Shown one piece after another: positions 6,090 to 28,687 of a stretch of 42,698 bases of DNA. The position numbers and the translations under genes were made by a program. Where the stretch lies: NCBI GenBank assembly GCA_945862035.1, contig CAMAXB010000001.1, forward strand, positions 1 through 42,698, in the 5' to 3' direction. Source of the stretch: Opitutus sp. GAS368. GTDB taxonomy: Bacteria; Verrucomicrobiota; Verrucomicrobiia; Opitutales; Opitutaceae. The notes below the pieces were generated by a model that had not been told where the DNA came from, did not search any database, and saw only the letters and a list, made by a program, of their open reading frames with translations. Positions within the stretch are counted from its first letter, which is position 1, and every line of letters starts with the position of its first letter.

Positions 6090-8303
6090 ATGATTCCATC
6101 CCCTGGACCCGCTCACGTTTGGAAATTCTACTGCATGGGTGGGCTCGACCAAGTTTCGCTGGAATCCGGCGCTGATCTGCTCGCGCTCGATCAGCTCGAC
6201 CAGAAGCTCTGGGTCGCCCTGAGCTGCCCGGTCAAGGGCCTCGAACTCGACGAGAGGACGCTCAGCCTGATCGACGGGGACAATGACGGTCGCATCCGCG
6301 TGCCGGAGCTGATCGAGGCGATCAAGTGGGCGGCGAAGCGCCTGAAGGACGCCGGCGAATTGCTTCGTGCATCCCCCGCCCTCCCGCTCGCGGCGATCGA
6401 CGACTCCACGCCAGAGGGCAAGATCCTGCTCGCCTCGGCCCGTCAGATCCTCGCCAACTTGGGCAAGCGGGACGCCACCGTCATCTCCGCGGACGACAGC
6501 GGCAACACCGCCAAGATTTTTTCCTCCAGCCCGCTCAATGGCGACGGCGTCATCCCGCCCGAGGCCACCGAGGACCCGGCGGCCCAGGCACTCATCAAGG
6601 ACATCATGGCCTGCCTCGGTGGCGTGCAGGATCGCACGGGGTCCGAGGGCGTGACGGCAGACAAGATTGCTGCCTTCTTTGACCAGCTCGCCGCCTACTC
6701 GGCCTGGGTCGGACTGAGTGCCTCCAAGGATATTGCGGTACTGGGGGAGGCCACCGATAAGGCTGTCGCCGCGCTGCGCGCCGTGCGGAGCAAGGTCGAG
6801 GACTACTTTGGCCGCTGCCGCCTCGCCGCCTTCGACGCCCGCGCCACCGCCGCCCTCAACCGGGCCGAGGGCGAGTACCTCGGCATCGCGGCCAAGGACA
6901 TGAAGATCACTGCCGACGAGGTTGCGGGTTTCCCGCTCTCGCGGATCGAGGCCGGCCGCGCGCTACCCCTGGTCGATAACGTCAATCCGGCCTGGGCCGC
7001 CGCGCTCGCGGCGTTGCACCAGACGGCGGTTGCTCCCGTGCTCGGAGCGGACAAGACCAGCTTGACCGAGGCTGATTGGATCGCACTTAACGCCAAGTTC
7101 GCCGCCTACGAAACCTGGCTCGGCGGCAAGGCCGGCAGCGCGGTCGAGAAGCTCGGCCTTCCGCGGGTGAAGGAAATCCTCGCCAGCCCAGCCCGCGAGG
7201 TCCTCGCCGGCCTGGTGGACAAGGACAAGGAGCTTGAGCCCGAGTTCAAGGCGATCTCGGACGTGGACCGCCTCACGCACTACCACCGGGACATGAGCAC
7301 GCTGCTCAATAACTTCGTCAATTTTTCCGACTTTTACTCGCCCGATCGTCCCGCGGTGTTCCAGGCCGGCACGCTCTTCCTCGACAGCCGCAGCACCGAA
7401 TTCTGCATCCAGGTCGCCGCACCCAGCCCGCTGGCCGCGATGAGCAAGGCCTACATCGCCTACTGCGACTGCAAGCGCTCGGGCGGGGAGACGATGAAGA
7501 TCGCCGCCTGCTTCACGCAGGGTGACAGCGATTACCTCTTCGTCGGACGCAATGGTGTGTTTTACGACCGCAAGGGCCGCGATTGGGATGCGACGATCAC
7601 GAGCATCGCCGACAACCCGATCAGCATCCGCCAAGCTTTCTGGTCGCCGTACAAGAAATTCATCCGCTTGATCGAGGATCAGATCGCGAAGCGCGCTGCC
7701 GCCGCCGAGGCCGACTCGAGCGCCAAGCTCGCCTCCGCCGCCGAGAAGACGGCCACCATGAACAAGGCCGCCCAGCCCGCCGAGCCCAGGAAGATCGATA
7801 TTGGCACCGTCGCCGCGATGGGTGTGGCGGTCGGCGCCATCGGTGGCGCCCTCGGGGCAATCGCCACGGGCCTCGCCCAACTGAACCCGATGCAGATCCC
7901 GCTGGTGCCGCTCGGCCTCATCACCGTCATTTCAGGTCCCTCGATGCTCATCGCTTGGCTCAAGCTGCGTCAGCGCAATCTAGGTCCAATCCTCGAGGCC
8001 AATGGCTGGGCCATCAACGGCCGCGTGAAGATCAACATCCCGCTCGGCACCAAGCTGACCGAAATGGCCGTCCTGCCCGCGAATGCCCGCCGCTCGCTCG
8101 AGGATCCGTACGAGGACAAGGCGGCGGCCGCCAAACGCCGGCAGATGATTCTTCTGGCCGTCCTCGTGCTGGCCGCCGTCGGCATCCGCTGGGACCACAA
8201 TCGCCACGGTCACTATTTCTGGCAGCCCGCTCCGGTTCCGGCTCCGATCGCGGTGGAAGCGCCTGCCGCTCCAGCGCCCGCGCCGGTCGAGGCCGCCAAG
8301 TAG
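6090..8303 (+). CDS. Large uncharacterised protein with an EF-hand-like loop and C-terminal TM / glycine-zipper segments
   Basis: 737 aa from the ATG at 6090. It has the canonical 12-residue loop DGDNDGRIRVPE and the glycine zipper GVAVGAIGGALGAIATG. Two further hydrophobic helices and a Pro/Ala-rich tail follow. An alternative start is at 6135. Confidence 0.75.
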   Translation: MIPSPGPAHVWKFYCMGGLDQVSLESGADLLALDQLDQKLWVALSCPVKGLELDERTLSLIDGDNDGRIRVPELIEAIKWAAKRLKDAGELLRASPALPLAAIDDSTPEGKILLASARQILANLGKRDATVISADDSGNTAKIFSSSPLNGDGVIPPEATEDPAAQALIKDIMACLGGVQDRTGSEGVTADKIAAFFDQLAAYSAWVGLSASKDIAVLGEATDKAVAALRAVRSKVEDYFGRCRLAAFDARATAALNRAEGEYLGIAAKDMKITADEVAGFPLSRIEAGRALPLVDNVNPAWAAALAALHQTAVAPVLGADKTSLTEADWIALNAKFAAYETWLGGKAGSAVEKLGLPRVKEILASPAREVLAGLVDKDKELEPEFKAISDVDRLTHYHRDMSTLLNNFVNFSDFYSPDRPAVFQAGTLFLDSRSTEFCIQVAAPSPLAAMSKAYIAYCDCKRSGGETMKIAACFTQGDSDYLFVGRNGVFYDRKGRDWDATITSIADNPISIRQAFWSPYKKFIRLIEDQIAKRAAAAEADSSAKLASAAEKTATMNKAAQPAEPRKIDIGTVAAMGVAVGAIGGALGAIATGLAQLNPMQIPLVPLGLITVISGPSMLIAWLKLRQRNLGPILEANGWAINGRVKINIPLGTKLTEMAVLPANARRSLEDPYEDKAAAAKRRQMILLAVLVLAAVGIRWDHNRHGHYFWQPAPVPAPIAVEAPAAPAPAPVEAAK

Positions 8304-10333: not shown

Positions 10334-11788
10334 TCAGCGGGCGCCCCAATGGTCGGCTCGTTTCCAGATCGCACTACCGTCGTAGCGCTTGCCGACCTCG
10401 TAGCGCGCATCCGGGGTGGCGGCCGTTCTCATGATCTCCCGAATCTCGCTCACGATTTCAGGATACTGTTCTGCGAGGTCCTGGGTTTCGCCGATATCCG
10501 CGCCCAGATAATACAACTCCACTGGGCCCTCACTGCCATGCCTCACGCCCTTCCAGTCGCCCAGCCGCACGGCCTGATGGTAAGCCTCCCGATTGTGACC
10601 ATAGTCCCAGTAAAGATAGCGGTGTCGCTGCAGCACCGGCTTCCCGCGAAAGGCATTAGCCACTGAAATTCCATCGATGCCCGCGACCGGCGCAGTCCCG
10701 GCCAGTTCGGCCAACGTGGGCAAAAGGTCCTGGAAAGCGATGACTTCCTGGCTCACGGCTGCAGCCGGCACCACGCCTTTCCACCGGGCCAGCAGGGGAA
10801 CGCGAATGCCTCCCTCGTAGAGCTCGCGCTTGCCGCCGCGCAACGGACCGCTGCTCCTGAATTGAGTGCTCAAACCCTCCCACGGCCCGTTGTCACCGGT
10901 GACGATGATCAAGGTGTTTTCGCCGAGACCCAAGTCGTCAACCAGCTTGACGATTCGCCCGACATCCCGGTCCAGGCGCGTGACCATCGCCGCGTAGTTT
11001 TTGGCCTGCTGACTCCACGAGCGGTCGGTGTAAGGGGCATCCGTCGGCACAGGGAGCTCAGTCGGATCTTCTTCCGGAGAGGCAAAGTGCGGCAACGTGA
11101 AAGCCGCGTACAAGAAGAACGGTTCGGAGGCCGAAGCCTTGATAAAGTCCAGCGCGCGCTCCGCAAATAAATCATGACTGTAGTGCTCCCGGGTGCGGCT
11201 GTTGCCGGGAAGCTCCAGCCGGCCCTCTCCATCATCGAGATACTCAGGGTAATAGTAATGCGCGTGATCCTGGTTCAGGTAGCCGAACCACATGTCGAAG
11301 CCCTGCCTGGTTGCCCGGCCCTCCGTGCCGGCATCACCCAAGGCCCATTTGCCCACGCCACCGGATCGGTAGCCCGCCTGCTGCAACACCTCCGCGACGG
11401 TCACGTCCGCATCGCTCAGATACGTCGGGTAGTGGGGAATATTGTCACGGGCGACCGCATGGCCCATGTGAAAACCCGTCATCAACACGGCCCGGGAAGG
11501 CGTGCAGACGCTCGCCCCCGAGTAGGCTTGAGTGAACCGCATCCCCTCTTGCGCAAGCTGGTCCAGATTCGGCGTGTGAATCAGTTCCTGCCCGTAACTG
11601 CCCAGGTCGCCGTACCCGAGGTCATCCGCCAGAATCAAGATGATGTTCGGTCTCTCCTGAGCCGGCCGGAGCGATCGATTTTCGCCGTAAGCCACCAAGC
11701 ACGTGCTCAGGAACAGCAGGACGGTGCCCAAACTAAATCCACGCGAAGAGATGCTCATCAGGCTTTTAGGGACGGTGCGATTGATCAT
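10334..11788 (-). CDS. Arylsulfatase (formylglycine-dependent sulfatase family)
   Basis: NIILILADDLGYGDLG and the CTPSR formylglycine motif (SVCTPSRAVLMTG), plus a signal peptide. The start is ambiguous between the ATGs at 11788 and 11758. Confidence 0.9.
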   Translation of the reverse strand: MINRTVPKSLMSISSRGFSLGTVLLFLSTCLVAYGENRSLRPAQERPNIILILADDLGYGDLGSYGQELIHTPNLDQLAQEGMRFTQAYSGASVCTPSRAVLMTGFHMGHAVARDNIPHYPTYLSDADVTVAEVLQQAGYRSGGVGKWALGDAGTEGRATRQGFDMWFGYLNQDHAHYYYPEYLDDGEGRLELPGNSRTREHYSHDLFAERALDFIKASASEPFFLYAAFTLPHFASPEEDPTELPVPTDAPYTDRSWSQQAKNYAAMVTRLDRDVGRIVKLVDDLGLGENTLIIVTGDNGPWEGLSTQFRSSGPLRGGKRELYEGGIRVPLLARWKGVVPAAAVSQEVIAFQDLLPTLAELAGTAPVAGIDGISVANAFRGKPVLQRHRYLYWDYGHNREAYHQAVRLGDWKGVRHGSEGPVELYYLGADIGETQDLAEQYPEIVSEIREIMRTAATPDARYEVGKRYDGSAIWKRADHWGAR

Positions 11789-12031
11789 TGGGCCGAGGTG
11801 TTGGTTGAGGGCGGTTGCGGGTGGACACAATTCATCAGTCTGGCGCTACAGTGATTGTTCATCGGGACGAGCAGAACTGAAAACGCTTCGTCGGCACAGT
11901 CGTGGATCTTTGACGCAGGTTAGCCGACCTCTTCATAACAAGCACGAGCCCGGAGAGTCGATCACTCCAGCATCGATCGGATGAGTCGCGCCGGCGATCC
12001 TCGCCGGGCGGTAGTCGCGACCCGTCGTCCC

Positions 12032-13939
12032 TCATTTGATCTGAACCTGGTCGACATGGTAGATGGCCGACTCAACGACTTCATCGGCTCCCGGGAGATC
12101 GGAGAGTCGCCCGTAGCGATCCGTTTGTCTCGTCGGCGTGTTTCGATACTCCCCGGTACGGAAGGAGAGACGCTCCACCGTCGCTGCCGGCTCGCTGAAT
12201 TCGGCGTCGCGCACGGCGGTGACTCCATTCACGTTCAGGCTGTAACGACCGCTCCCGGCATCGATTGCTAATTCAATCTGCAGCCATTCATCCGGCCGGT
12301 AGTTGCCCGCTGGGACCAGAGAGGCGCCCTGTGACGCGAGGAGCGCGCCTCCGGCGGCCAACACGAATCGGACCGGGCGCCGACCGGCGTGGTCGAGGAC
12401 CTCGACCTCAAGGCGGCCCGTATCCACCTGCGCGGCGTAAACCTTGAAGGCAATGGTGACCGTCTGCGCTTCGGCGAAGACGCGCACGGCCTTCGCGTAG
12501 TCGTAGGGATCCCGGTCCTCGATCCTCAGACTCTTGTCCGCGTTGCTCGGGAATGGCGCGACAGTCGTATCCGCCCAACGGGGACGGTAGAGGTTCCATT
12601 CAGGAACGGCCGCACCGACGTCGAGGCCATCAAACTGGTCATCGACGGGCCCCTCCACCCGGTGACGCACCGGCACGGGCGTCCGGCTGACCCACATGTC
12701 CTCCTTGTTCATGCTGTAGGTGATCCACAGGTCGGAGCCGGGAGGGTTGCCATTCCCTTCCGCAATGCCGCGCACATATTGCGGCCCAAAGTCCTTCGCC
12801 CGGCCCGTGAATCGGAGCGGCGGGACTTCGCCATTCACCACCAGCATGTTCTCGAAGCGAATCCCGTCTTCACCGGTCGCGATGGCCAGAGGCCAGCGAT
12901 GCGAACCGAAGTTGGCCGGGTTGTAGACGATGGCATAGCGGTCGTCGTCGGTGCGCTGACCCCAGGCCTTGGCGCCCGAGGTGATGATGCTGGGAACTTT
13001 GACCGGACTGCTCCACGTCTGCCCCTCATCCGGTGAGACCGCCGCCACCGCGTGTTTGAACAGCGCGACGACCTGGCCATCCCTGCGATGATAGATCGAC
13101 GGTGCGGCATGCGCGTCGTGCTGTCGAGGTGCGGCTGCAGGCACCGGACCGTCCCCCGGCGGATTGGTCGACGACGCGGAGGATCGATTGATTGCAAAGA
13201 ACTCATCGTTCGGGTCATCTTCCTCATCCCACCACTGCATGGTCTTGAGCTTGTCCGCGAGGAGGGCCTCGCACGCCTCGACAAAACCCCGATCGCCGGA
13301 TCGCGCGTAAAAGGTGAAGGCGGTGTTGCTCTCATTGAACGAGGACAGGCTGTTGTACCGGATAAAATGGATTGGCCCAAACGTGCCGTCCTTGAAGATC
13401 TCGCGCACCACGCGACCGATCCCGTTGGCCCCATAATAAACCGGGGCGCGTCCGTAGAAGCCGAGCGCGAGCAGACGACCATTGGGGGCCACGTAGAAAC
13501 CCATCCGCTGGTGCATCATGGCCACTCCGGACTCGACACTGGAAACGGAACCCGGACGCAGATGGTAAACGGGGAACAACAGCTGCGGCTTCCCCCAACT
13601 CCGGCCATCGCGGGAAGTCACCAGCATCGTATGGCCCGGCGGCAGGTGTTCCGCGACCGGATTGCTCAGGTAGTTGAGGTAGAACCGACCATTCCAGTAG
13701 GCGAGCGTCGGGGCATGATTGTAGGTCCACCCGTGGCCGTCGGAGAATTCACGCTGGGTGCGATTCGCCCTCATCACCTGAATGCTCTCCACGCCGATCG
13801 CCGGTCGAAGTCGCCCGTCGTGCACCGAGAGATCGATGCCGGGACTCTCCACGCGCACCGGTTCATCCGGGCCACCTGGCTGGGCGCAGAGCGCCGAGAC
13901 GACGAGCCATGAGCATACGATCAATCGGCGAGAGGACAT
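12032..13939 (-). CDS. BNR/Asp-box repeat glycoside hydrolase-like protein (sialidase-like), secreted
   Basis: Asp-box motifs SRDGRSW and SPDEGQTW. Signal peptide MSSRRLIVCSWLVVSALCA from the ATG at 13939. The ORF extends to 14209. Confidence 0.7.
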   Translation of the reverse strand: MSSRRLIVCSWLVVSALCAQPGGPDEPVRVESPGIDLSVHDGRLRPAIGVESIQVMRANRTQREFSDGHGWTYNHAPTLAYWNGRFYLNYLSNPVAEHLPPGHTMLVTSRDGRSWGKPQLLFPVYHLRPGSVSSVESGVAMMHQRMGFYVAPNGRLLALGFYGRAPVYYGANGIGRVVREIFKDGTFGPIHFIRYNSLSSFNESNTAFTFYARSGDRGFVEACEALLADKLKTMQWWDEEDDPNDEFFAINRSSASSTNPPGDGPVPAAAPRQHDAHAAPSIYHRRDGQVVALFKHAVAAVSPDEGQTWSSPVKVPSIITSGAKAWGQRTDDDRYAIVYNPANFGSHRWPLAIATGEDGIRFENMLVVNGEVPPLRFTGRAKDFGPQYVRGIAEGNGNPPGSDLWITYSMNKEDMWVSRTPVPVRHRVEGPVDDQFDGLDVGAAVPEWNLYRPRWADTTVAPFPSNADKSLRIEDRDPYDYAKAVRVFAEAQTVTIAFKVYAAQVDTGRLEVEVLDHAGRRPVRFVLAAGGALLASQGASLVPAGNYRPDEWLQIELAIDAGSGRYSLNVNGVTAVRDAEFSEPAATVERLSFRTGEYRNTPTRQTDRYGRLSDLPGADEVVESAIYHVDQVQIK

Positions 13940-14437
13940 CACGTTCACTTTCTTTTTCGAGAGGTTGCCGGACAGGCGCCGGAGGGCGTCTTTTGCTAAA
14001 ACGTTTTTTCTAAATCGGCCATTTGTCAAGCAGGATTGGCTGCGTCGTTCGCGAAGGGGGGCAGGCCGCGCGCTGTTGTATTTGGCTCTGTTTTCCAGGC
14101 GCTTTCCCGTTGAAACCAACCAGCCACGGCTGTCGCAGCGAAAGAATCGAATGGATCGAAGCACCGTTCGGGAGCGAGGTCTCTCCGTTCCCCCCACGAC
14201 CGGACTCAACGGTCGGAAAATACAACACTACGCGGCCTGACCTTCGAGAACCTCGGTGCGCGGCTCGCGACGAGAAAACCGAGCATATCGGAAAGAACGT
14301 AGTCCCTCGCCTCCTTCTGGTCAGCCGCAAGTTCCGCTGCATCATCGATCGAGTAATTCAGGACGATGCAGGAAGACAGGATGTTTTCGACTATCTCTGA
14401 CGGCTCAAGGGGGTAACGGGATCGCTGGCGTTTCAGC

Positions 14438-15127
14438 TTACGGGATCACGTAAAACGGGTTCGGCAGCTTGAAGGTCCGCTCAGCGTGGCCACCGGCGAG
14501 GTCGCTGTCCTGATCGCCGATGCTGGCGATGATCATCCAGCCCTCGCGGGCGAGCGCAGCGCGCTGCGCGGCCTTGCGTTGAGCGGTGGTCGGAAAATCG
14601 TCGGAGGCGGGCGCGAGCACGAGGCGGGCGTAGTCGCTCATGCCCTGGCGAAGAAGATTGGCCTCGGTGCCGGGGCGGTCGCGGGGGTCCTTTCGGCCCG
14701 TGACGAAGAGCACGTCCACCCCGAGACGGCGCGCGGTCAAATAAACCTCCCGCATCGGCGCAATCGCCGGCGCCACGCCACGGGCCACCCAGGCGTTCCA
14801 CACTTCGGGCACATAACCGAAATCCTGCGCCTTCATCTGCGGATAGCTCGAGAGCACGGTCTCATCGATGTCGACGACGACCGCCAGCCGCTCCCCTGCC
14901 CCTTTGCGCGCGGCGCGCTGCTCGATCCATGACCGGGCCTCCGCCGCCACGGTCGCAAGGTCGCGGTCGTATCCGCCGTTGTCCACGTAGGCCACAACGG
15001 CGGCCTTGGCCGCAGTGAGATTGACGAGCCCCGTTGAAGGCGCCGTACAGCCGGCGCCGAGCAGCCCCAGACCGAGCAGGAGTATCGGGTTCAGGATCCG
15101 GATTCGGGGACGGAGGGATGGCCACAA
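14438..15127 (-). CDS. HAD-superfamily class B acid phosphatase lipoprotein
   Basis: Motifs VVVDIDETVL (DxDxT), FVTGRKD and GDQDSDL. The lipobox LLGAGC has no nearby ATG, so I propose the TTG start at 15127. The ORF is open to 15283, with ATGs at 15214 and 15253 as alternatives. Confidence 0.7.
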   Translation of the reverse strand: MWPSLRPRIRILNPILLLGLGLLGAGCTAPSTGLVNLTAAKAAVVAYVDNGGYDRDLATVAAEARSWIEQRAARKGAGERLAVVVDIDETVLSSYPQMKAQDFGYVPEVWNAWVARGVAPAIAPMREVYLTARRLGVDVLFVTGRKDPRDRPGTEANLLRQGMSDYARLVLAPASDDFPTTAQRKAAQRAALAREGWMIIASIGDQDSDLAGGHAERTFKLPNPFYVIP

Positions 15128-15249
15128 AAAACACGAAGATCTGCCACCGCGCGCAGGAATGCTGTCCGGGCGCCCTCTAGGGCACCAAAAGGTGAACCAT
15201 CCAACCCCAGACATTTTTGTGTTCTTCGTGGCCAAACTCCGTCCTGCGT

Positions 15250-17358
15250 TCATCCCGCCTTCTTCACCTGCCGGACCGGCCACTGCGTGACGGTCAGACC
15301 CTTGGCGTTGCGGCTGCCGACCGTGAGTTCGCCCAGATTGAACTCGAACTCCTTGATGCGCGCGGAGCAGCGCCCGCTCAGGATAATCTCCACCTTTTTG
15401 GGCATGCCCGCTTCGGTCTTGGCAACGTCGAGGTAAACGACTTTCGAACCTTCGCTCGACGCGAGCGGGTAGAGCTTCTCGCGAGTGACGCCACCGACCT
15501 GGAAGCGCTTGGCGAAGGCCTTCCCACTGGCCTTGTCCTGATAGATCATGGTGTAGAAGGCCTTGTCCCCTTCCTTGGGCAGAATCGCGAGGTGGAGGAT
15601 TTCGCGTCCCATGAAGACCTTGTCGGCCACGCGCGCGACCTTCATCGAGCCATCGGCCATGAAGCAGATGACGTCGTCAAGGATGGTGCACTCGGTCACG
15701 AATTCATGCTGGCGCCAGTTGAGGCCGATGAAGCCCTCCTCGCGGTTGACGTAGAGGCGCTGGTTGGCGGACACCACCGCGGCCGCGCTGATCTGCTCGA
15801 TCTCATCGTAGGTCGTGCGGCGCTTGTGCGGCTTGCCGTACTTTTCCTGGAGGGTCTCGAACCACGAGATTGCGAACGGGGTGAGGTGCTTGAGGTGGTG
15901 CTTAACCTCCTTGATCCCGTCCTCAATCTTCTTGATCGCCTCGTCGGCCTGGAATCGATTGTAGGCGGAGATGCGCTTGATGCGGATTTCGGTCAGGCGC
16001 GTGATGTCGTCATCCGTGACCTCGCGGCGGAGCTGCTTGAGGAAGGGCTTCAACCCTTCGCGGATCTCCGCCAGCACTTCCTCCCACGTCTTCGATTTCT
16101 CGATCCGACGGTAGATACGCTCCTCGATGAAGATGCGCTCGAGCGAGTCCCAGTGCCACTGCTGGTCGAGTTCGCCCAGCTTGATGTCGAGCTCTTGCTT
16201 GAGCAGGTCGATCGTCTTGTCGACCGAGCGGCGGAGGATGTCGGACACCCCGAGGAAGACGGGCTTCTCGCCATCGATCACGCACGCAGCCGGGGAGATC
16301 GAAACCTGGCAGTCGGTGAAGACGTAGAGCTGCTGGATGATCTGGTCGGGATCGCTGCCCTGCGGCAGGTGGACGAGGATCTCGACGACGTCGGCGGTGT
16401 TGTCATCGACATGCTTCACCTTGATCTTGCCCTTGGCGTTGGCCGCGAGAATCGATTCGATGAGAGACTCCGTGGTGGTGCCGAAGGGCAGCTCGGTAAT
16501 GGCGAGGAGGTGCTTGGCGCGTGCCTCGATCTTGGCACGGACCTTCACCTTCCCGCCGCGCTCGCCGTCGTTGTACTCCTTAAAATCGGCGATGCCGCCC
16601 GTGGGAAAATCCGGGTAGATGCGGAAACGTTTTCCCTGGAGGTGATTGATCGCCGCCCGGCAGAGATCGTTGAAGTTATGCGGGAGGATCTTGGTCGAGA
16701 GACCGACCGCGATGCCCTCGGCACCATCGAGGAGCACGAGCGGAAACTTGGCGGGAAGCGTGACGGGCTCGTTCTTGCGTCCGTCGTAGCTGAGCTGCCA
16801 GGTCGTCGTCTTCGGATTGAACAGGACATCGCGCGCGAACGGTGTCAGGCGCGCCTCGATGTAACGGGGCGCCGCCGCGCCGTCACCCGTCAGCGTGTTG
16901 CCGAAGTTGCCCTGGGGCTCGATCAGGAAACCGCGCTGGGCGATGCCGACCAGAGCCGCGTCGATCGAGGCATTGCCGTGCGGGTGCAGGGCCATGGTCT
17001 GGCCGGTGACATTAGCGACCTTGTGGAAGCGGCCATCGTCCATGTCCCAGAGCGTGTGCAGGATCCGGCGCTGCACGGGCTTGAGGCCGTCGTCGATGTG
17101 GGGGACGGCGCGATCGAGGATGACGTAGCTGGCGTACTCGAGGAACCAGCTCTTGTAGTGCTTGGCCAGCGGGGCGTCCTCGGGATTGCGCGGTGCATCC
17201 GTGGCGACCGGGGCGTCCGGCGGCTCGCCGTCGGCGGGCGGTGCCGGGGGGGGCGTCGGCGAAGCCGGGGTGACCGATTCGTCCGCCGGAGACTCGGAAC
17301 CGCCGTTCAGGGGCAGCTCGGGCTGGTCGGAGGGCGTGGAATTTTTGCGTTTGACCAT
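15250..17358 (-). CDS. parC: Type IIA topoisomerase subunit A (topoisomerase IV ParC-type)
   Basis: DGLKPVQRRILH, HPHGNASI and the active-site Tyr context AAAPRYIEARL. I chose the ATG at 17358, which avoids overlap with the upstream S41 gene. The first ~62 aa are a Pro-rich extension. Confidence 0.88.
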   Translation of the reverse strand: MVKRKNSTPSDQPELPLNGGSESPADESVTPASPTPPPAPPADGEPPDAPVATDAPRNPEDAPLAKHYKSWFLEYASYVILDRAVPHIDDGLKPVQRRILHTLWDMDDGRFHKVANVTGQTMALHPHGNASIDAALVGIAQRGFLIEPQGNFGNTLTGDGAAAPRYIEARLTPFARDVLFNPKTTTWQLSYDGRKNEPVTLPAKFPLVLLDGAEGIAVGLSTKILPHNFNDLCRAAINHLQGKRFRIYPDFPTGGIADFKEYNDGERGGKVKVRAKIEARAKHLLAITELPFGTTTESLIESILAANAKGKIKVKHVDDNTADVVEILVHLPQGSDPDQIIQQLYVFTDCQVSISPAACVIDGEKPVFLGVSDILRRSVDKTIDLLKQELDIKLGELDQQWHWDSLERIFIEERIYRRIEKSKTWEEVLAEIREGLKPFLKQLRREVTDDDITRLTEIRIKRISAYNRFQADEAIKKIEDGIKEVKHHLKHLTPFAISWFETLQEKYGKPHKRRTTYDEIEQISAAAVVSANQRLYVNREEGFIGLNWRQHEFVTECTILDDVICFMADGSMKVARVADKVFMGREILHLAILPKEGDKAFYTMIYQDKASGKAFAKRFQVGGVTREKLYPLASSEGSKVVYLDVAKTEAGMPKKVEIILSGRCSARIKEFEFNLGELTVGSRNAKGLTVTQWPVRQVKKAG

Positions 17359-17380
17359 GGTGCGAAAGGAGGAAAAGGGA

Positions 17381-18607
17381 TCAGGAAGAGGGCAGGACGG
17401 GCGACGCTGCGAGGACGGCGAGAGCGGCGGCGAGGTCGACATCCCGACCCTGACGCAGGTCGTCGAGCCGGACGGTCACGGGGACATCGGGCACCACGCC
17501 GGCGCCTTCGAGCCGCCGGCCGTCGAGGCCCACATAGTCCTGAATCGCGAGCTGGAGCTGGCCCCCGTCCGGCAACCGGTAGTGACGCGCCGCGATGACC
17601 GCGCCGGCGGTGGTGCGACCGACAACGATCGCGCGGCCTTTTTGCTGGAGAACGTGGGAGAAAATCTCTGCGCTGCTGGCGGAGGCCTCGTCGACGAGGA
17701 TCACAACGCGGCCGCGGTAGCGGGCGGCGCCCAGCGTGAGCGACCCGGTCTCGCGCTCGCGTCCGTCCCGCCGCACAAAGGTTCCGATCAGGACCTCCGC
17801 CGGGAAGAACTCGGCGATGGCGAAGCGAACCGACATCAGCAGGCCGCCCGGGTTGCCGCGCAGGTCGACGATCACGGCGGGAGCGTCGCGTCGCGCCTCC
17901 AGTTCGGCGCTGAGCCAGCGGATAGACGCCGGGTCGAATTCCTCGAAACGCAGCAGGACGATCCCGCGGTCGAGTTCGCGCACCTCGCGGCGCGGGGCCC
18001 ATACGACCGGACCGGCCACGAGCGTAAGCGGGATGATGCGGTCGGCCGGATCGAGAAACTCCAGGCGGACTTCTTGGCCCGGCCGCATGGTGAAGCGGGG
18101 GGCCCGCTCGCCGACCGGACGGCCATCGCGGGAACGGACGATCCAGCCGGGCTGGACGCCGGCGGCCGCGGCGGCGGAGCCGGGATAGACGGTGGTCACG
18201 ACCCAGAGGTCGTCGACGCGGCGCATGATGAAGCCGGTGGCGACGCGGGTGTCGTGGCGCAGCTGGAAGGCGTCGCGCGGCGGGAGCGCGGCGTTGTGTG
18301 ACTCGCCGAGCTCGTTGAGCAACGTGTTGATGGCCGTGTAGAGCGCCTCGTCCGCGGGCGCGGCCACGGCGGCGGCGCGGTGGCGGGCGACGGCGGCGGG
18401 CCAGTCGATGCCCCGCATCGTCTGGTCAAAGAAGCGATCTGCCGCGAGCTCCGCCGTGCGGTCGAAGACCTGCGCGTTGCGCGCGGTGCGGGCGGCGGCA
18501 GTGAGGGCGGGCGGTTCCTGCCAGACGCGCGGCGCGGTCGCGCAGCCGCCGGCCAGGACGGCGGCGAGCAGCAGCAACCAGGAGGCGATGGGGCACGGGC
18601 GCGGCAT
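17381..18607 (-). CDS. S41 family peptidase (PDZ-containing) lipoprotein
   Basis: Lipobox LLAAVLAGGC, a DLRGNPGG motif, the catalytic-Ser region DEASASSAEIF, and a PDZ-like segment YPGSAAAAAGVQPGWIV. Confidence 0.88.
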   Translation of the reverse strand: MPRPCPIASWLLLLAAVLAGGCATAPRVWQEPPALTAAARTARNAQVFDRTAELAADRFFDQTMRGIDWPAAVARHRAAAVAAPADEALYTAINTLLNELGESHNAALPPRDAFQLRHDTRVATGFIMRRVDDLWVVTTVYPGSAAAAAGVQPGWIVRSRDGRPVGERAPRFTMRPGQEVRLEFLDPADRIIPLTLVAGPVVWAPRREVRELDRGIVLLRFEEFDPASIRWLSAELEARRDAPAVIVDLRGNPGGLLMSVRFAIAEFFPAEVLIGTFVRRDGRERETGSLTLGAARYRGRVVILVDEASASSAEIFSHVLQQKGRAIVVGRTTAGAVIAARHYRLPDGGQLQLAIQDYVGLDGRRLEGAGVVPDVPVTVRLDDLRQGRDVDLAAALAVLAASPVLPSS

Positions 18608-18619
18608 GCGGACGAGCGA

Positions 18620-20464
18620 TCAGACCTCGACCAGGTCCTTTTCGACCCGGAGATTGGCGATGATGAACTCCTGCCGGTCAGGTGTGTTCTTGCCCATGTA
18701 GAATGAGAGGAGCTGGTCGCTGTTGCCCAAGTGGGCGAGCGAGACGGGCTCGAGGCGGATGTTCTCGCCGATGAAGTCCTTGAACTCGTTGGCGCTGACC
18801 TCGCCGAGACCCTTGAAGCGGGTGATCTCAGGATTCACGCCGAGCTTGGCCATGGCGGCGTTTCGCTCCTGTTCGGAGTAGCAATAGATCGTCTGCTTCT
18901 TGTTCCGCACGCGGAAGAGCGGCGTCTCGAGGATGAAGAGATGATTGTTGGTGATCAGCTCGGGAAAGAACTGGAGGAAGAACGAAAGCAGCAGCAGGCG
19001 GATGTGCATGCCGTCGACATCGGCGTCGGTGGCGATGATCACGCGGTTGTAGCGCAGCCCGTCGAGGCCCTCCTCAATGTTGAGCGCGCTCTGCAGGAGG
19101 TGGAATTCCTCGTTCTCGTAGATGACCTTCTTGGTCAGGCCGTAGGTGTTGAGCGGCTTGCCCTTGAGGGCGAAGACCGCCTGGGTCTGGACATCGCGGC
19201 AGGCGGTGAGCGAGCCGGAGGCGGAGTCGCCCTCGACGATGAAGAGCGTGCTGTCCTCGGCGCGCTTGTCCTTGGAATCGAGATGGACGCGGCAGTCGCG
19301 CAGCTTGCGATTGTGGAGCGAGGCTTTTTTCGCGCGTTCGCGCGCAAGATTACGGATGCCGGAGAGCTCCTTGCGTTCGCGTTCGCTGTCCTCGATTTTC
19401 CGCTTGAGGGCCTCGGCCGCCCCGGGGTTGCGGTGCAGCCAGTTGTCGAGCTGCGCCTGCATGAAGTTCGTCACGAACTGGCGGATCGACGGACCGCCCG
19501 GACCGATGTCGTTGGAACCCAGCTTGGTCTTGGTCTGGGACTCGAAGACGGGCTCCATCACGCGGACGGAAACGGCGGCGACGATCGACTGGCGGATGTC
19601 GGCGGCGTCGTAGTCCTTCTTGTAGAAATTGCGGATCGTCGCGACCAGCGCCTCGCGGAAGGCGCCGAGGTGGGTGCCGCCCATGGTGGTGTGCTGGCCG
19701 TTGACGAAGGACCAGTACTCCTCGCCGTAGTGACCGCCATGGGTCATCGCGACCTCGATGTCGTCGGCCTCGATGTGGATCAGTGGATAAAGTGGCTCGC
19801 CGGTGAGCTTCTTGGTGAGAAGGTCCTTCAGGCCGTTTTCGGAGCGATAGCTCTTGCCGTTGAAGACGAGGGTGAGGCCGCGGTTGAGGTAGGCGTAGTT
19901 CCAGAGCATCTCCTCAATGAATTCAGGGCGGAACTTGAAGTCCTTGCCGAAAAGCGCCTCGTCCGGCGTGAACTCAATCAGGGTACCGTTCTTCTCGTCC
20001 TTGGCGGCGACGACCTTGCCATCCTTCTTGAGCTTGCCCTGGTAGAACTCGACGGAGCGCGTCTGACCTTCGCGATAGGCCTGGGCGCGGTATTCGAGCG
20101 CGAGCGCGTTGACGGCCTTCTGGCCCACGCCGTTGAGGCCGATCGCCTTCTTGAAGGTCTCGCTGTCATACTTGGCGCCCGTGTTGATGATGGAGACGCA
20201 CTCGACCAGCTTGCCGAGGGGGATACCCCGCCCGTAGTCGCGGACGCGGAGGGTGCGCTCGATCAGCTCGATCTCGACCTTCTTGCCGAAGCCCATGGTG
20301 TACTCGTCGATACAGTTATCGATCGTCTCCTTGAGCAGCACGTAGATGCCGTCCTCGGGGTGGACGCCATTGCCCAGCCGGCCGATGTACATGCCCGGGC
20401 GCAGGCGGATGTGCTCGAGCGGGGAAAGGGTCTTGATGGAGGCTTCGGTGTAGTTGGAGGCCAT
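18620..20464 (-). CDS. parE: Type IIA topoisomerase subunit B (topoisomerase IV ParE-type)
   Basis: [13 protein letters not shown], the GHKL region, Toprim [19 protein letters not shown] and [12 protein letters not shown]. Start at the ATG at 20464 (MASNYTEAS). Confidence 0.9.
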
Positions 20465-20495
20465 GGGAAAAGGTGCGTGAAGGGGAAACGGAAGA

Positions 20496-20927
20496 TCAGG
20501 GAGCAGGCGCAAGCACAAGCACGCGCTCCGCGGACGGCCCGGCGAGCGCCGGAATACGCGTGTCGAATGTGACCAGGCGGCCGCGATGGTACGCCGCCAG
20601 CGCCAGCAGGTAGGCATCGTTCACCTGCTGATGTCCCAGCGCACGGGAAAGATCCGCGGGCGTGAGCGCCGGCGCAGAATCCCAATAATGATGGCCCGCG
20701 TGCCCGGTGCAAAGGCCGAGCAGGCGGGCGGCCTCCGCGGGTGCCGCCGGAAAGCGCGTGAACGCGGGATTTGACGAGAGGCGGACGAACGCGAGCTGCG
20801 TCAACGCACAGGTGGCCCAGCCCCCACCCGCTTCCCGCGCGAACCAACGGTGGGCGGCGGCGTGGAACTGGTGATTGGGCCACGCGAGCGCGAGCAGCAC
20901 ATTGGCGTCAAGCAGGGCCTGACTCAC
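20496..20927 (-). CDS. vapC: PIN-domain toxin (VapC family)
   Basis: [12 protein letters not shown]..., [10 protein letters not shown] and VTFDTR give acidic residues spaced as in PIN domains. It overlaps the upstream antitoxin gene by 4 nt. Confidence 0.85.
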
Positions 20928-24335: not shown

Positions 24336-24953
24336 ATGTCCCTCCGCGCCTGGTTCCCCACCTACATCTATTGCGAGCCCCTGCAGTCCCGCGGGCTCCC
24401 TCAACTCAACGAAGACCTCGCCGCTGAATGCGCCCAGCTGCGCGATTTCGACCAGGCGGGCCGGCGCTGGTCCGCGGTGAATTATCCGGGTGGCTACACC
24501 AGCTACGCCTCGATGAATACCCTGCACACGTTCTCGAGCACGTTCGCTGCGTTGGAGCGCAAGCTCTCGCGCCACGTGAGGGCCTACGCCAAGGCGTTGG
24601 CCATGGACCTACGGGGTCGCACCATTCAAATGACCGACTGCTGGGTGAACATCATGCCACCGACGGCGGCCCACTCCCTGCACCTGCACCCCTTGTCGTT
24701 TGTCAGCGGCACTTACTATGTAAGGACGCCGAAGGGCTGCCCCGGCCTGAAGTTCGAGGATCCCCGCATGGATCGCTTCATGGCCGCACCGCCCAAGCGG
24801 CCCGATGCCGGGCCGGAACACCGGGCCCATGTCACCTACCCGGCCGAGGCCGGCAATGTCATCCTGTTCGAAAGCTGGCTGCGTCACGAAGTCGCCACCA
24901 ATCGCGTCGACCACGAGCGCATCAGCATCAGCTTTAACTATAACTGGAGCTGA
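24336..24953 (+). CDS. TIGR02466-family putative 2OG-Fe(II) oxygenase-like protein
   Basis: MSLRAWFPTYIY..., HLHPLSFVSGTYYV, GNVILFESWLRHEV and RISISFNY match the TIGR02466 / 2OG-FeII_Oxy_5 layout as I recall it. Confidence 0.8.
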   Translation: MSLRAWFPTYIYCEPLQSRGLPQLNEDLAAECAQLRDFDQAGRRWSAVNYPGGYTSYASMNTLHTFSSTFAALERKLSRHVRAYAKALAMDLRGRTIQMTDCWVNIMPPTAAHSLHLHPLSFVSGTYYVRTPKGCPGLKFEDPRMDRFMAAPPKRPDAGPEHRAHVTYPAEAGNVILFESWLRHEVATNRVDHERISISFNYNWS

Positions 24954-25134: not shown

Positions 25135-25389
25135 ATGCTCGTCATCCGCCGCATGATTGATCGCCGTCGCGCCTACACCGCGCTGATGCTGCCCGGCGAG
25201 CCGCCGAAGATTTTTCCAACCAGCGACGCGGAACACGCGCGCATTCTCCAGATTTACAAGCAGGACCGCGCCTATCCGGGCATCGTGAATGACTTCACTG
25301 ATTTCGATGCCCCGGCCCCTGCCCCGGAGCCAACGCGTAAATCGGGTTCCTCATCGCGACGGCGCACCGGTTCATCGCAGTCCGGTTGA
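25135..25389 (+). CDS. Hypothetical small protein
   Basis: 84-aa ORF directly upstream of the SeqA-like gene. I recognise no family. Confidence 0.45.
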   Translation: MLVIRRMIDRRRAYTALMLPGEPPKIFPTSDAEHARILQIYKQDRAYPGIVNDFTDFDAPAPAPEPTRKSGSSSRRRTGSSQSG

Positions 25390-25420: not shown

Positions 25421-25927
25421 ATGAAAACGATCGATGTCACCGAACAGGTCCATGCCGAACTCCAGCGTCTGGCCGCAGAGTCCCGCCTGGCGCCCTCCGC
25501 AGTCCTGGCCGCGCTGCTTCATCTTCCCACCTCGCCCGATTTGGACCGCGATCCACTGATCGTCTTTCTGCTGGGGTCGGAGCTGCGGACCAAGTCCACG
25601 GATGCCGAGCGCTACGTCTCCCTCCTGAGCTGGGTCGCGGAGCGCCAGCCCAGCCGTTTCCGTGAGTACATCGAGGCCCTGACCAGTGGCCGCCGCTACC
25701 TGGGCCTGAGCCGCGAAGAGATCATTGCGCAGTGTCACCACAACCAGGCGCGTCCGATCCCGGGTACGACCTACTGGGCGATCATGAACCTCGACACGCC
25801 CACCAAGCGGCGGTTTCTCCGCCGGGTCCTGACGTTCTGCGGCTACCGCCCGGAGGTCGTGGACTTTGCGGGCCAAGTCTTCGGTCGTCCGCGCCTGGCG
25901 CTCGTGGAAGAGACCGCGGCCGCCTGA
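25421..25927 (+). CDS. SeqA-like protein (SeqA N-terminal oligomerisation-like plus C-terminal DNA-binding-like domains)
   Basis: 168 aa from the ATG at 25421. [35 protein letters not shown] resembles E. coli SeqA [43 protein letters not shown]...[22 protein letters not shown] resembles HGRTRVYF...PKHVPGTPYWVITNTNTGRK. The E. coli sequence is recalled from memory. Confidence 0.8.
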   Translation: [168 protein letters not shown]

Positions 25928-25997: not shown

Positions 25998-26414
25998 GTG
26001 TCCTCGTTCGAACCCGAGCCCAAGCGGCGCAACGTCCGCAATTTTTTCGCGGCGCTCCGGTATGCGATCGATGGGTTCTGGGCGGCCCTGCGCCATGAGC
26101 CCTCGTTCCGCGAGGACCTGCTCTTCGTGGTCCTGCTCGTCCCGTTCGCGATCATCCTGCCCGTCAACGCCGTCTCCACGGCATTGATGATCGCCTCCCT
26201 CCTGCTGATCATGATCGTCGAGCTGCTGAACTCGGCGATCGAGTGGACCATCGATTACCTGCGCCCGGAGATTCACCCGCTCGCCAAGCGGATCAAGGAT
26301 ATGGCCAGTGCAGCCGTTTTCCTCGCCTACATGAACTGCATCATCGTCTGGATCATCATGCTGTGGCCTTCGAATGACGTGTGGCGGCGGATCGAGGAAT
26401 GGTTGATACCATGA
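25998..26414 (+). CDS. dgkA: Diacylglycerol kinase (prokaryotic DgkA family)
   Basis: Three-TM small protein with the VELLNSAIE motif. I chose the GTG start at 25998 (138 aa). The ORF opens at 25866 but overlaps the SeqA-like gene. Confidence 0.85.
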   Translation: MSSFEPEPKRRNVRNFFAALRYAIDGFWAALRHEPSFREDLLFVVLLVPFAIILPVNAVSTALMIASLLLIMIVELLNSAIEWTIDYLRPEIHPLAKRIKDMASAAVFLAYMNCIIVWIIMLWPSNDVWRRIEEWLIP

Positions 26415-27323: not shown

Positions 27324-28439
27324 TTACCGCACCCGCGTGAAAAAGCCAATGCCGACGCCCAGCATGGCGAGGTTGGGGACCAGCGCTGCCCAGAGCGGCG
27401 GGATGACCTCGCGTCCGCCCATCGCGGTGGACGCCTTGAGCAGGACAAAGTAGACAAGGAAGAGGCCGATGGATTTGGATACGCCCACCGCCGGGTTCAC
27501 ACGGACGCCGCTGATCGCAAAGGGAATCGCGATCGCCATGATGATCAGGGGACCGAGGGTCTCGGCTAGCAGGCTGTAGTAGCGGACGGCGTAGGCTGTG
27601 ACCTTCGGGTTTTCATCGACGGTAAAGTAGTCGATGATCCGGCTTAATTCGGAGAAAGAGAGGTCCACGGGCCGCAGGTCGAACACCAGCATGAGCGCGG
27701 GGTCCTCCCGGAAATGAGGCACGCTTTTCTCGGCAAAGGACACGGTGCGCACGACCTCGCCGGTCTCGGGTTCAAGCCAGGTTTCACGCCCGTCGAAGAA
27801 CACCCACGAGCCACGGGCGGCGTCGAAGCCCGCCTCGCGCGCCGTGAGCCGGGTCTTTTCGCGACGAAGGGCATCCAGCTCCGAGACGGTGACGCCGTAG
27901 CCGCGGCCGGTGAAGCGGCTGTAGCGGTTGAAGTACCACATCCGGTTCTGGCGCTGATTGTCGAAGGCGACCCCCGTGGTCGTGCCAATGCGGTCGACGG
28001 CGCTGTTGGCGCGGGCCTCCGACCGGAACTGCAGATTCTGCAGCAGCGAGCGGGACTCCTCCACCGACCAGGGAATCACCGTGGCATTCACGTACCACAT
28101 CACCCCGCAGAGCACCGCCCCGGAAAGCCACAGAACCCGCGTCAGCCGGAAAAGCCCGACCCCCGCCGCGCGCAGGGCCGTGATTTCATTGTTCCGATGC
28201 AGCTGCCCCAGCGTGTAGAGCAGGGAGATCAGCAGGGTCAGGGGCAGGACGATGGACAGGTAGCTGGGGAGCTTGACCGCAAAGTAAACCAGGACATCCG
28301 CGAATGTGGCGCCATCGTCGAGCAGGTCCCGGAAATCCTCATACATCGCCTGCATCAGCAGGAGCCCCAGCATCGCGCAAAGCACCAGGCCGAGCATTTT
28401 CAGCCATTCGCGCAGCAGGTAGCGGTCGATGAGGGTCAT
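27324..28439 (-). CDS. LptF/LptG (YjgP/YjgQ) family permease
   Basis: MTLIDRYLLREWLKMLG... N-terminus, six-TM layout and a large periplasmic loop. Start at the ATG at 28439. Confidence 0.85.
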   Translation of the reverse strand: MTLIDRYLLREWLKMLGLVLCAMLGLLLMQAMYEDFRDLLDDGATFADVLVYFAVKLPSYLSIVLPLTLLISLLYTLGQLHRNNEITALRAAGVGLFRLTRVLWLSGAVLCGVMWYVNATVIPWSVEESRSLLQNLQFRSEARANSAVDRIGTTTGVAFDNQRQNRMWYFNRYSRFTGRGYGVTVSELDALRREKTRLTAREAGFDAARGSWVFFDGRETWLEPETGEVVRTVSFAEKSVPHFREDPALMLVFDLRPVDLSFSELSRIIDYFTVDENPKVTAYAVRYYSLLAETLGPLIIMAIAIPFAISGVRVNPAVGVSKSIGLFLVYFVLLKASTAMGGREVIPPLWAALVPNLAMLGVGIGFFTRVR

Positions 28440-28687
28440 GAGAGGGCGGCCGAGACAGGCCATGCTGGCGGGGGGGAACCGGCGGCGGCGACTCAAAAAG
28501 ACCGGTACGGTGACACCGGCCTGATGGAGCGGAGTTCGCTGACCCCGAACCGCGGTGCTGGCCCTGCCTGAACAAGGGATGAAGCCGACCCGAAGCCATC
28601 CCCGGGCCGAAGGCGGCTGGATCGAGCGCCATGACCTGTACAGTTTGGTTGAAAGCGGGCCAAACCCTCCTCACGCTTGGCCCCCGC

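Follow-up and report, generated by a model that had tools for sequence, protein, structure and literature searches.

Gene and domain organization

The stretch of DNA analyzed here, called the window in the following, comprises 42,698 nucleotides of Opitutus sp. GAS368 (GenBank assembly GCA_945862035.1, contig CAMAXB010000001.1, positions 1–42,698 of the forward strand) and carries a gene for a SeqA-like protein of 168 amino acids. In enteric bacteria SeqA recognizes freshly replicated, half-methylated DNA, and it is seen as the signature of a module, composed of Dam, SeqA, and MutH, that enteric bacteria and related Gammaproteobacteria possess. Both the Pfam match and the fold place the Opitutaceae protein in the SeqA family; it belongs to a divergent subfamily and is no equivalog of enteric SeqA. 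The gene and the parts of its product that are discussed below are the following:

25421–25927, plus strand: SeqA-like gene, with an ATG start, 168 codons, and a TGA stop
25421–25525, plus strand: N-terminal domain (residues 1–35), ribbon–helix–helix-like, presumed dimerization module equivalent to SeqA-N
25526–25558, plus strand: short linker (residues 36–46), where the alignments leave a gap of ∼27 residues against the E. coli linker
25559–25882, plus strand: SeqA C-terminal DNA-binding domain (residues 47–154), supported by Pfam and Foldseek matches
25691–25696, plus strand: Arg91-Arg92; Arg91 is invariant and aligned with the DNA-contacting Arg118 of E. coli
25733–25753, plus strand: motif C105-x-H-N-Q-A-R111, clade-specific and invariant in the alignments A1 and A2, opposite NGNQTKPK of E. 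coli
25775–25813, plus strand: DNA-binding loop and start of the next helix, W119[12 protein letters not shown]131, placed by alignment

The coordinates of the gene are exact in the open reading frame (ORF) listing of the window. A second in-frame ATG lies further 5′ at position 25289 and would extend the product to 212 amino acids. However, all of the more than 100 homologues begin at MK(T/N)IE, and therefore we take 25421 as the true start.

Membership in the SeqA family

The assignment to the SeqA family is based on profile searches and on structure prediction. The protein matches the Pfam model of the SeqA C-terminal domain (PF03925) with 47.2 bits (gathering score 25.5, E 2.6e-12, residues 51–148), and all 93 aligned homologues match this model as well. 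A phmmer search of the PDB returned SeqA chains only (E 1e-5). The family profile, which was made from the alignment A2 of the 93 homologues, matches the near-full-length E. coli SeqA(Δ41–59) of structure 3FMT (E 1.2e-13, profile positions 1–153), the C-terminal domain of Vibrio cholerae SeqA (3SK7, E 1.6e-10), and the isolated N-terminal domain of SeqA (1XRX, SeqA 1–50, E 0.004). With hhalign the full-length E. coli protein is aligned end to end over residues 1–181 with a probability of 98.5%; the identity between both proteins is 19%. An end-to-end alignment with E. coli SeqA had been claimed in an earlier note on this DNA, which was made from the sequence alone, and the profile comparisons bear it out.

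The AlphaFold2 model, which was also built on A2, has a predicted local distance difference test score (pLDDT) of 85.9 and a predicted template modelling score (pTM) of 0.75. When this model was compared to the PDB with Foldseek, the significant matches were SeqA structures only, the next match having an E value of 3.7. The best full-length match is 3FMT with 163 columns. The E. coli structures 1LRR_A (target template modelling score 0.85, root mean square deviation 2.5 Å) and 1IU3_C (root mean square deviation 1.9 Å) as well as 3SK7 of V. cholerae are also among the significant matches. Thus, the fold check proposed in the earlier note speaks for SeqA, and we have hardly any doubt that the protein is a DNA-binding protein of the SeqA family.

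The two domains are not equally well covered by the Pfam models. The N-terminal domain is aligned gap-free to residues 1–35 of E. coli SeqA by hhalign and forms two helices in the AlphaFold2 model (residues 8–21 and 25–32). The Pfam model SeqA_N (PF17206), however, has no match at E ≤ 1 in the window protein and is only weakly matched by 23 of the 93 clade members (best E 3.6e-4). In addition, the first 35 residues weakly match the ribbon–helix–helix families VapB, FitA-like, and RHH_10 in 10–27 of the 93 members. Of the two hidden Markov model searches that the earlier note had proposed, the C-terminal one is positive and the N-terminal one is equivocal. The linker between the domains has ∼10 residues in the hhalign alignment as compared to ∼30 in E. 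coli SeqA.

The contacts of E. coli SeqA to DNA that are listed in PMC6225831 with reference to Fujikawa 2004 include R116, T117, R118, N150, and N152, and Asn150 and Asn152 mark the DNA-binding loop (PMC2691817). In the Opitutaceae protein Asn123 is the equivalent of Asn150 and Lys129 is the equivalent of Lys156, and both residues are, like Arg91, invariant in the clade. The segment P-G-T-x-Y-W is common to the Opitutaceae protein and to E. coli SeqA. On the contrary, the motif CxHNQAR at residues 105–111 and an arginine-rich helix after the loop, KRRFLRR, are without counterpart in the E. coli protein.

Distribution and genomic context in Opitutales

In a database of 5.8 billion proteins we found 101 homologues at E ≤ 1e-3. 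All of these contain PF03925 and have a length of 156–200 amino acids; the named carriers include Actomonas aquatica and metagenome-assembled genomes (MAGs) of Opitutaceae. UniRef and IMG label the homologues automatically as SeqA, and many of them bear the IMG label “negative modulator of initiation of replication”. With one genome scanned for each GTDB species, 81 matches were obtained, all of them in the order Opitutales of the Verrucomicrobiota; among the carriers are Opitutaceae, Cephaloticoccus, Pelagicoccus mobilis, and strain DG1235. The genome had been described as PVC-like (Planctomycetes–Verrucomicrobia–Chlamydiae) in the earlier note, which agrees with its place in the Opitutaceae and with this distribution. 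The gene is intact in ∼80 species with 40–99% identity and an invariant core. The closest loci, L001–L003, are from organisms named “uncultured Opitutus sp.” and “Opitutaceae bacterium”; there the SeqA-like protein has 75–77% identity and the ParE-like neighbor has 96%.

The surroundings of the gene in the window are as follows:

24336–24953, plus strand: gene for a 2OG-Fe(II) oxygenase (PF13759, by Pfam), upstream synteny anchor
25135–25389, plus strand: orf84, a conserved small ORF of 84 amino acids, upstream syntenic partner ending 31 nt before the SeqA-like gene
25998–26414, plus strand: dgkA, prokaryotic diacylglycerol kinase (PF01219, 111 bits), downstream synteny anchor
27324–28496, minus strand: LptF/LptG permease gene, downstream synteny anchor
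15250–17442, minus strand: ParC/GyrA-like gene
17381–18607, minus strand: S41 peptidase gene, between the ParC- and ParE-like genes
18620–20617, minus strand: ParE/GyrB-like gene

As the earlier note had it, the gene thus follows an ORF of 84 amino acids and precedes dgkA. In the mechanical ORF listing dgkA starts with a TTG at position 25866 and overlaps the 3′ end of the SeqA-like gene by 62 nt. Since the PF01219 domain begins only at residue 65 of this long ORF, the GTG at position 25998 is the probable start.

From upstream to downstream the genes are arranged as 2OG-Fe(II) oxygenase, orf84, SeqA-like gene, dgkA, (SDR), lptF/G, and liv ABC transporter. This arrangement was followed in 80 Opitutales loci of at most 20 kb, many of which are incomplete, and in this set the 2OG gene is present in 52 loci, orf84 in 42, dgkA in 34, and lptFG in 42. 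Where orf84 is found upstream of the SeqA-like gene, its first ∼57 residues are 60–96% conserved by tblastn; Pfam, NCBIfam, PADLOC, and PHROGs contain nothing that matches the ORF. In about half of the 42 loci orf84 and the SeqA-like gene are separated by a minus-strand gene whose product is a small, glycine-zipper-like secreted protein, and orf84 is therefore no obligate operon partner. The Opitutales loci with broken synteny show unrelated metabolic neighbors only, so that the search for an operon or for guilt by association remained negative there.

A type IIA topoisomerase gene pair is located on the minus strand of the window (15250–20617), 5–10 kb from the SeqA-like gene. A link between SeqA and Topo IV has been reported in E. 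coli. Only the closest relatives, L002 and L003, have the ParC- and ParE-like genes in this proximity to the SeqA-like gene.

The composition of the gene is that of its host, as the GC content is 66.1% compared to 65.0% for the window and the GC content at third codon positions (GC3) is 0.82, with similar values for the neighbors. There are no phage or true plasmid copies, and PADLOC and PHROGs have no matches for the gene. The sole match in a plasmid collection is a canonical seqA–pgm locus on a 4.9-Mb Aeromonas replicon. This locus, L088, is from Aeromonas caviae (NZ_AP026896.1, 3349228–3355650, 18 annotated features) and is filed as “plasmid pKAM479_3”; the replicon is probably a chromosome that has been mislabelled as a plasmid. 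The host-like GC content and the lack of plasmid and phage copies indicate that the gene is old and vertically inherited, and the synteny across ∼80 species rules out a recent transfer from enteric bacteria, as the earlier note had argued from the GC content alone. In summary, the SeqA-like gene is an old, vertically inherited, chromosomal, and non-mobile gene which is under purifying selection in at least 80 Opitutales species.

SeqA-like proteins beyond Opitutales

When 1.84 billion representatives clustered at 50% identity were searched with a hidden Markov model of the clade profile, 533 SeqA-like clusters were found at E ≤ 1e-3. This number decreases to 281 at E ≤ 1e-10, and the 25 clusters at E ≤ 1e-30 form an Opitutales-like core. 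SeqA-like proteins thus occur in environmental bacteria much more widely than textbooks suggest. The occurrence of SeqA in this PVC-like genome was called unexpected in the earlier note. The gene does lie well outside the textbook range of the family, but the 533 clusters correct the impression of a rarity. The survey of homologues outside Gammaproteobacteria that was proposed there has returned 81 carrier genomes in Opitutales.

The DNA-binding loop was compared in ∼130 aligned full-length representatives, a sample which is biased because similarity to the Opitutales profile determined the ranking of the sequences. The loop is N-x-D in 58 of these proteins, T-x-D in 16, N-x-S in 15, and N-x-P in nine, and the canonical enteric N-x-N is found in nine as well. 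Among the SeqA-like proteins of this sample aspartate is accordingly the most frequent state at the position of Asn152. In the P0133 group, which also has the N-x-D loop, the signature T18/I21/A25 is kept and both Pfam models, SeqA_N and SeqA, are passed. It follows from the P0133 group and the other N-x-D proteins that the aspartate is not peculiar to Opitutaceae and that by itself it is no sign of an altered specificity. The earlier note had taken the loop NLD as a hint that the specificity may differ; its observation that the first asparagine is kept stands, and the aspartate is even invariant in the clade.

Some neighbors of the genes for the more distant proteins may be mentioned. In two loci of the P0133 group, L081 and L082, a gene for a PF01555 N6/N4 DNA methyltransferase is found 2.3 kb upstream (6296–7675, minus strand), and in a third one, L083, a fragmented type I restriction–modification system follows directly downstream (10565–17765, minus strand). 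No methyltransferase is located near the SeqA-like gene in the loci L085–L087. A gene pair with a HicA toxin is found directly 3′ of the SeqA-like gene in L085 (8660–9092) and in L086 (8592–9058), and the edge of L087 (1–30), ∼8 kb off, carries a HicB-like antitoxin gene. These HicA/HicB-like neighbors may be coincidental.

Possible function

The overall best explanation of our results is that the gene codes for a functional protein of the SeqA family that has been inherited vertically and whose likeliest role is that of a reader of newly replicated hemimethylated DNA, and we would give this explanation an even chance of being correct. Taken on its own, the reading of hemimethylated DNA by the Opitutaceae protein, which is argued by analogy to SeqA, falls slightly short of an even chance. 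That its site would be GATC is a tentative proposal and clearly the less probable part.

If the protein acts in this way, it would dimerize through the ribbon–helix–helix-like N-terminal domain and would place the two C-terminal domains on two DNA sites roughly one helical turn apart. E. coli SeqA lacking the linker residues 41–59 fails to bind hemimethylated GATC pairs whose spacing exceeds one helical turn (PMC2691817), and the naturally short linker of ∼10 residues suggests the same limitation to closely spaced sites. The contacts to the DNA would be made by Arg91 and by the invariant loop Asn123-Leu-Asp125-Thr-Pro-Thr-Lys129. As the filament residues T18, I21, and A25 are absent, the protein probably acts as a dimer or oligomerizes through another interface and does not form a filament of the E. 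coli type. The dimer might then bind transiently to hemimethylated N6-methyladenine sites on newly replicated DNA, with GATC as the default candidate from homology only, and might in this way organize or sequester the new DNA.

A number of observations weigh against this explanation. The SeqA equivalog model of NCBIfam (NF008389) gives a score of 45.8 bits compared to a cut-off of 185 and covers the C-terminal domain only. At the position of E. coli Asn152 the clade has the invariant Asp125, and the DNA-contacting pair R116 and T117 has given way to Ser89 and Gly90; both positions also vary among accepted gammaproteobacterial SeqA proteins (PMC6225831). The filament residues T18, I21, and A25, which are fully conserved in all SeqA proteins compared in the same study (PMC6225831), are A18, S21, and P25 in the Opitutaceae protein; in the clade the positions 18 and 21 are variable and Pro25 is not. 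Furthermore, the abundance of GATC does not point to a Dam-like system. The 10 GATC sites that the earlier note had counted in the first 1260 nt are indeed more than the ∼4 expected from mononucleotide composition, and throughout the window 372 sites are observed compared to 138 expected on this basis (2.7-fold). With a second-order Markov model, however, 373.5 sites are expected (ratio 1.00), and TCGA behaves like GATC, being 2.4-fold above the mononucleotide expectation and at or near the Markov expectation. The GATC excess was therefore rejected as evidence for Dam, and the early count turns out to be the composition effect that the earlier note itself had suspected. An oriC-like GATC cluster was rejected as well, since the maxima in windows of 60–500 bp are within the random expectation, and so were helically phased GATC pairs, for which 1.32 Mb of Opitutales DNA shows a 3-nt coding periodicity only, the same as for TCGA.

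The enzymes of the enteric module are also missing from the DNA that was searched. E. coli Dam and MutH have no tblastn match at E ≤ 1 in the window or in the 80 related loci (1.42 Mb in total), and Pfam scans of most of the long ORFs of the window revealed neither protein, in line with the earlier note. Of two freshwater “Opitutae vadinHA64” MAGs one has the methylated motif ACGAG and the other has none, GATC methylation being found in neither (PMC6329791), and five marine Verrucomicrobia MAGs have neither methylated motifs nor methyltransferase genes (PMC8919816); none of these MAGs is established as a carrier of the SeqA-like gene.

Apart from GATC, two tetranucleotides of the window deviate from the Markov expectation, as CTAG is ∼4-fold depleted (9 observed, 38.9 expected) and GTAC is mildly depleted (62 observed, 94.7 expected).

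The main rival explanation is a binding mode that is independent of methylation. The protein would then be a sequence-specific regulator or a nucleoid-associated protein on unmodified DNA, and the reading of hemimethylated GATC would be a gammaproteobacterial specialization. The lack of Dam, of MutH, and of a GATC signal in the window and the related loci is in agreement with this view, as are the verrucomicrobial MAGs, for which the absence of methylated motifs or methyltransferase genes is often reported (PMC8919816; PMC6329791). Further arguments in its favor come from the protein family itself: only nine of the ∼130 sampled relatives have the canonical N-x-N loop, the clade has an invariant motif, CxHNQAR, which E. 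coli SeqA does not have, and the ribbon–helix–helix fold, to several families of which (VapB, FitA, and others) the N-terminal domain is weakly similar, is typical of transcriptional repressors. Nevertheless, binding of hemimethylated GATC is the sole biochemical activity of the SeqA fold that is known to us, and no member of the clade deviates at the equivalents of R118, N150, and K156. Moreover, the methyltransferase search was confined to the window and the related loci, which leaves room for such an enzyme elsewhere in the genome, and a local repressor would be expected to have a conserved divergent target gene or an operon partner, neither of which is present. Taking both sides together we regard methylation-independent binding as rather unlikely.

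Next comes the reading of a hemimethylated motif other than GATC, which would be set by a lineage-specific orphan methyltransferase; the base recognition would have been re-tuned by the exchange of Asn152 for aspartate and by the loss of R116 and T117. The invariance of Asp125 in the clade and the replacement of R116 and T117 by Ser-Gly would fit such a change, and methylation of ACGAG and not of GATC has been reported for a freshwater Opitutae MAG (PMC6329791). Other N-x-D lineages sometimes have non-Dam methyltransferases as neighbors, namely the PF01555 enzyme of L081/L082 and the type I system of L083. These neighbors are anecdotal, however, with none in L085–L087, and the aspartate is present in many SeqA proteins that otherwise look canonical and may thus be suited to GATC. 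We therefore consider a non-GATC motif improbable, and more so than methylation-independent binding. For a recently transferred, decaying, or mobile-element-borne copy without host function only the unexpected taxon can be brought forward; the intact gene in ∼80 species with its invariant core, the conserved synteny, the host-like composition, and the lack of phage, plasmid, defence, or PHROG matches leave this explanation next to no probability, and conservation and synteny have effectively refuted it.

A broader hypothesis should also be considered. The Opitutaceae protein could be a single branch within a large class of SeqA-like proteins that have the loop Asn-x-Asp, occur in several non-gammaproteobacterial lineages, and read a different hemimethylated motif or unmethylated DNA, with the enteric SeqA as a specialized offshoot. 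We put this forward with reserve, as it appears to us less likely to be true than false. If it is true, post-replicative reading of DNA by the SeqA fold would be much more widespread than thought.

The databases already annotate the homologues automatically as SeqA, and therefore we are dealing with unexamined biology and not with an unrecognized gene. In the literature that was searched, SeqA is not connected with Verrucomicrobia or Opitutaceae: Opitutaceae are mentioned together with SeqA in no paper, and the eight papers that name both SeqA and Verrucomicrobia concern other matters. The new aspects are the breadth of the occurrence, namely a whole verrucomicrobial order in synteny, together with the features of the subfamily, that is, the short linker, the aspartate in the loop, and the CxHNQAR motif. 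Should the protein be a reader of hemimethylated DNA as we suggest, a distant phylum would handle its new DNA in a methylation-timed manner, which would imply an unrecognized orphan methyltransferase as partner. Otherwise, the SeqA fold would have a methylation-independent role in DNA binding that predates the enteric system. As hundreds of environmental SeqA-like clusters have the same aspartate loop, the question reaches beyond the Opitutales clade.

Comparison with known systems

The closest known protein is SeqA from E. coli, for which structures of the C-terminal domain with hemimethylated GATC (1LRR, 1IU3, 1J3E), of a dimer on tandem GATC (3FMT), and of the N-domain filament (1XRX) are available. 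Both proteins have the same order of two domains, the same fold of the C-terminal domain, and equivalents of R118, N150, and K156. They differ in that the Opitutaceae protein has a short linker, replacements of the filament residues and of N152, and with the CxHNQAR motif and the KRRFLRR helix two additional elements. In addition, its gene is not located beside pgm but has orf84 and dgkA as neighbors.

SeqA from Aeromonas caviae (L088) belongs to the same family and is matched by tblastn with an E value of 6e-5 over residues 2–142. The SeqA proteins of V. cholerae and Aeromonas keep the N-x-N loop (NNN, NTN), whereas Opitutales have N-L-D, and Aeromonas keeps the seqA–pgm arrangement, whereas the neighborhood in Opitutales is a different one.

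The environmental proteins of the P0133 type resemble the Opitutales proteins in the aspartate at the position of Asn152, in their short length (156–180 amino acids), and in being encoded by stand-alone chromosomal genes. Environmental N-x-D proteins score 70–100 bits with the Opitutales profile compared to 54 bits for E. coli SeqA. The P0133-type proteins differ from those of Opitutales as they keep T18/I21/A25, pass SeqA_N, and are encoded in anaerobe-like, non-enteric gene contexts.

Finally, the N-terminal domain is comparable to the N-terminal domains of antitoxins and repressors of the Arc/MetJ type, because its first 35 residues fit a ribbon–helix–helix-type dimerization module, as is also the case in SeqA-N. 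Ribbon–helix–helix repressors, however, bind DNA via the sheet of this module and have no SeqA C-terminal domain, whereas the conserved DNA-binding determinants of the Opitutales proteins are located in the C-terminal domain.

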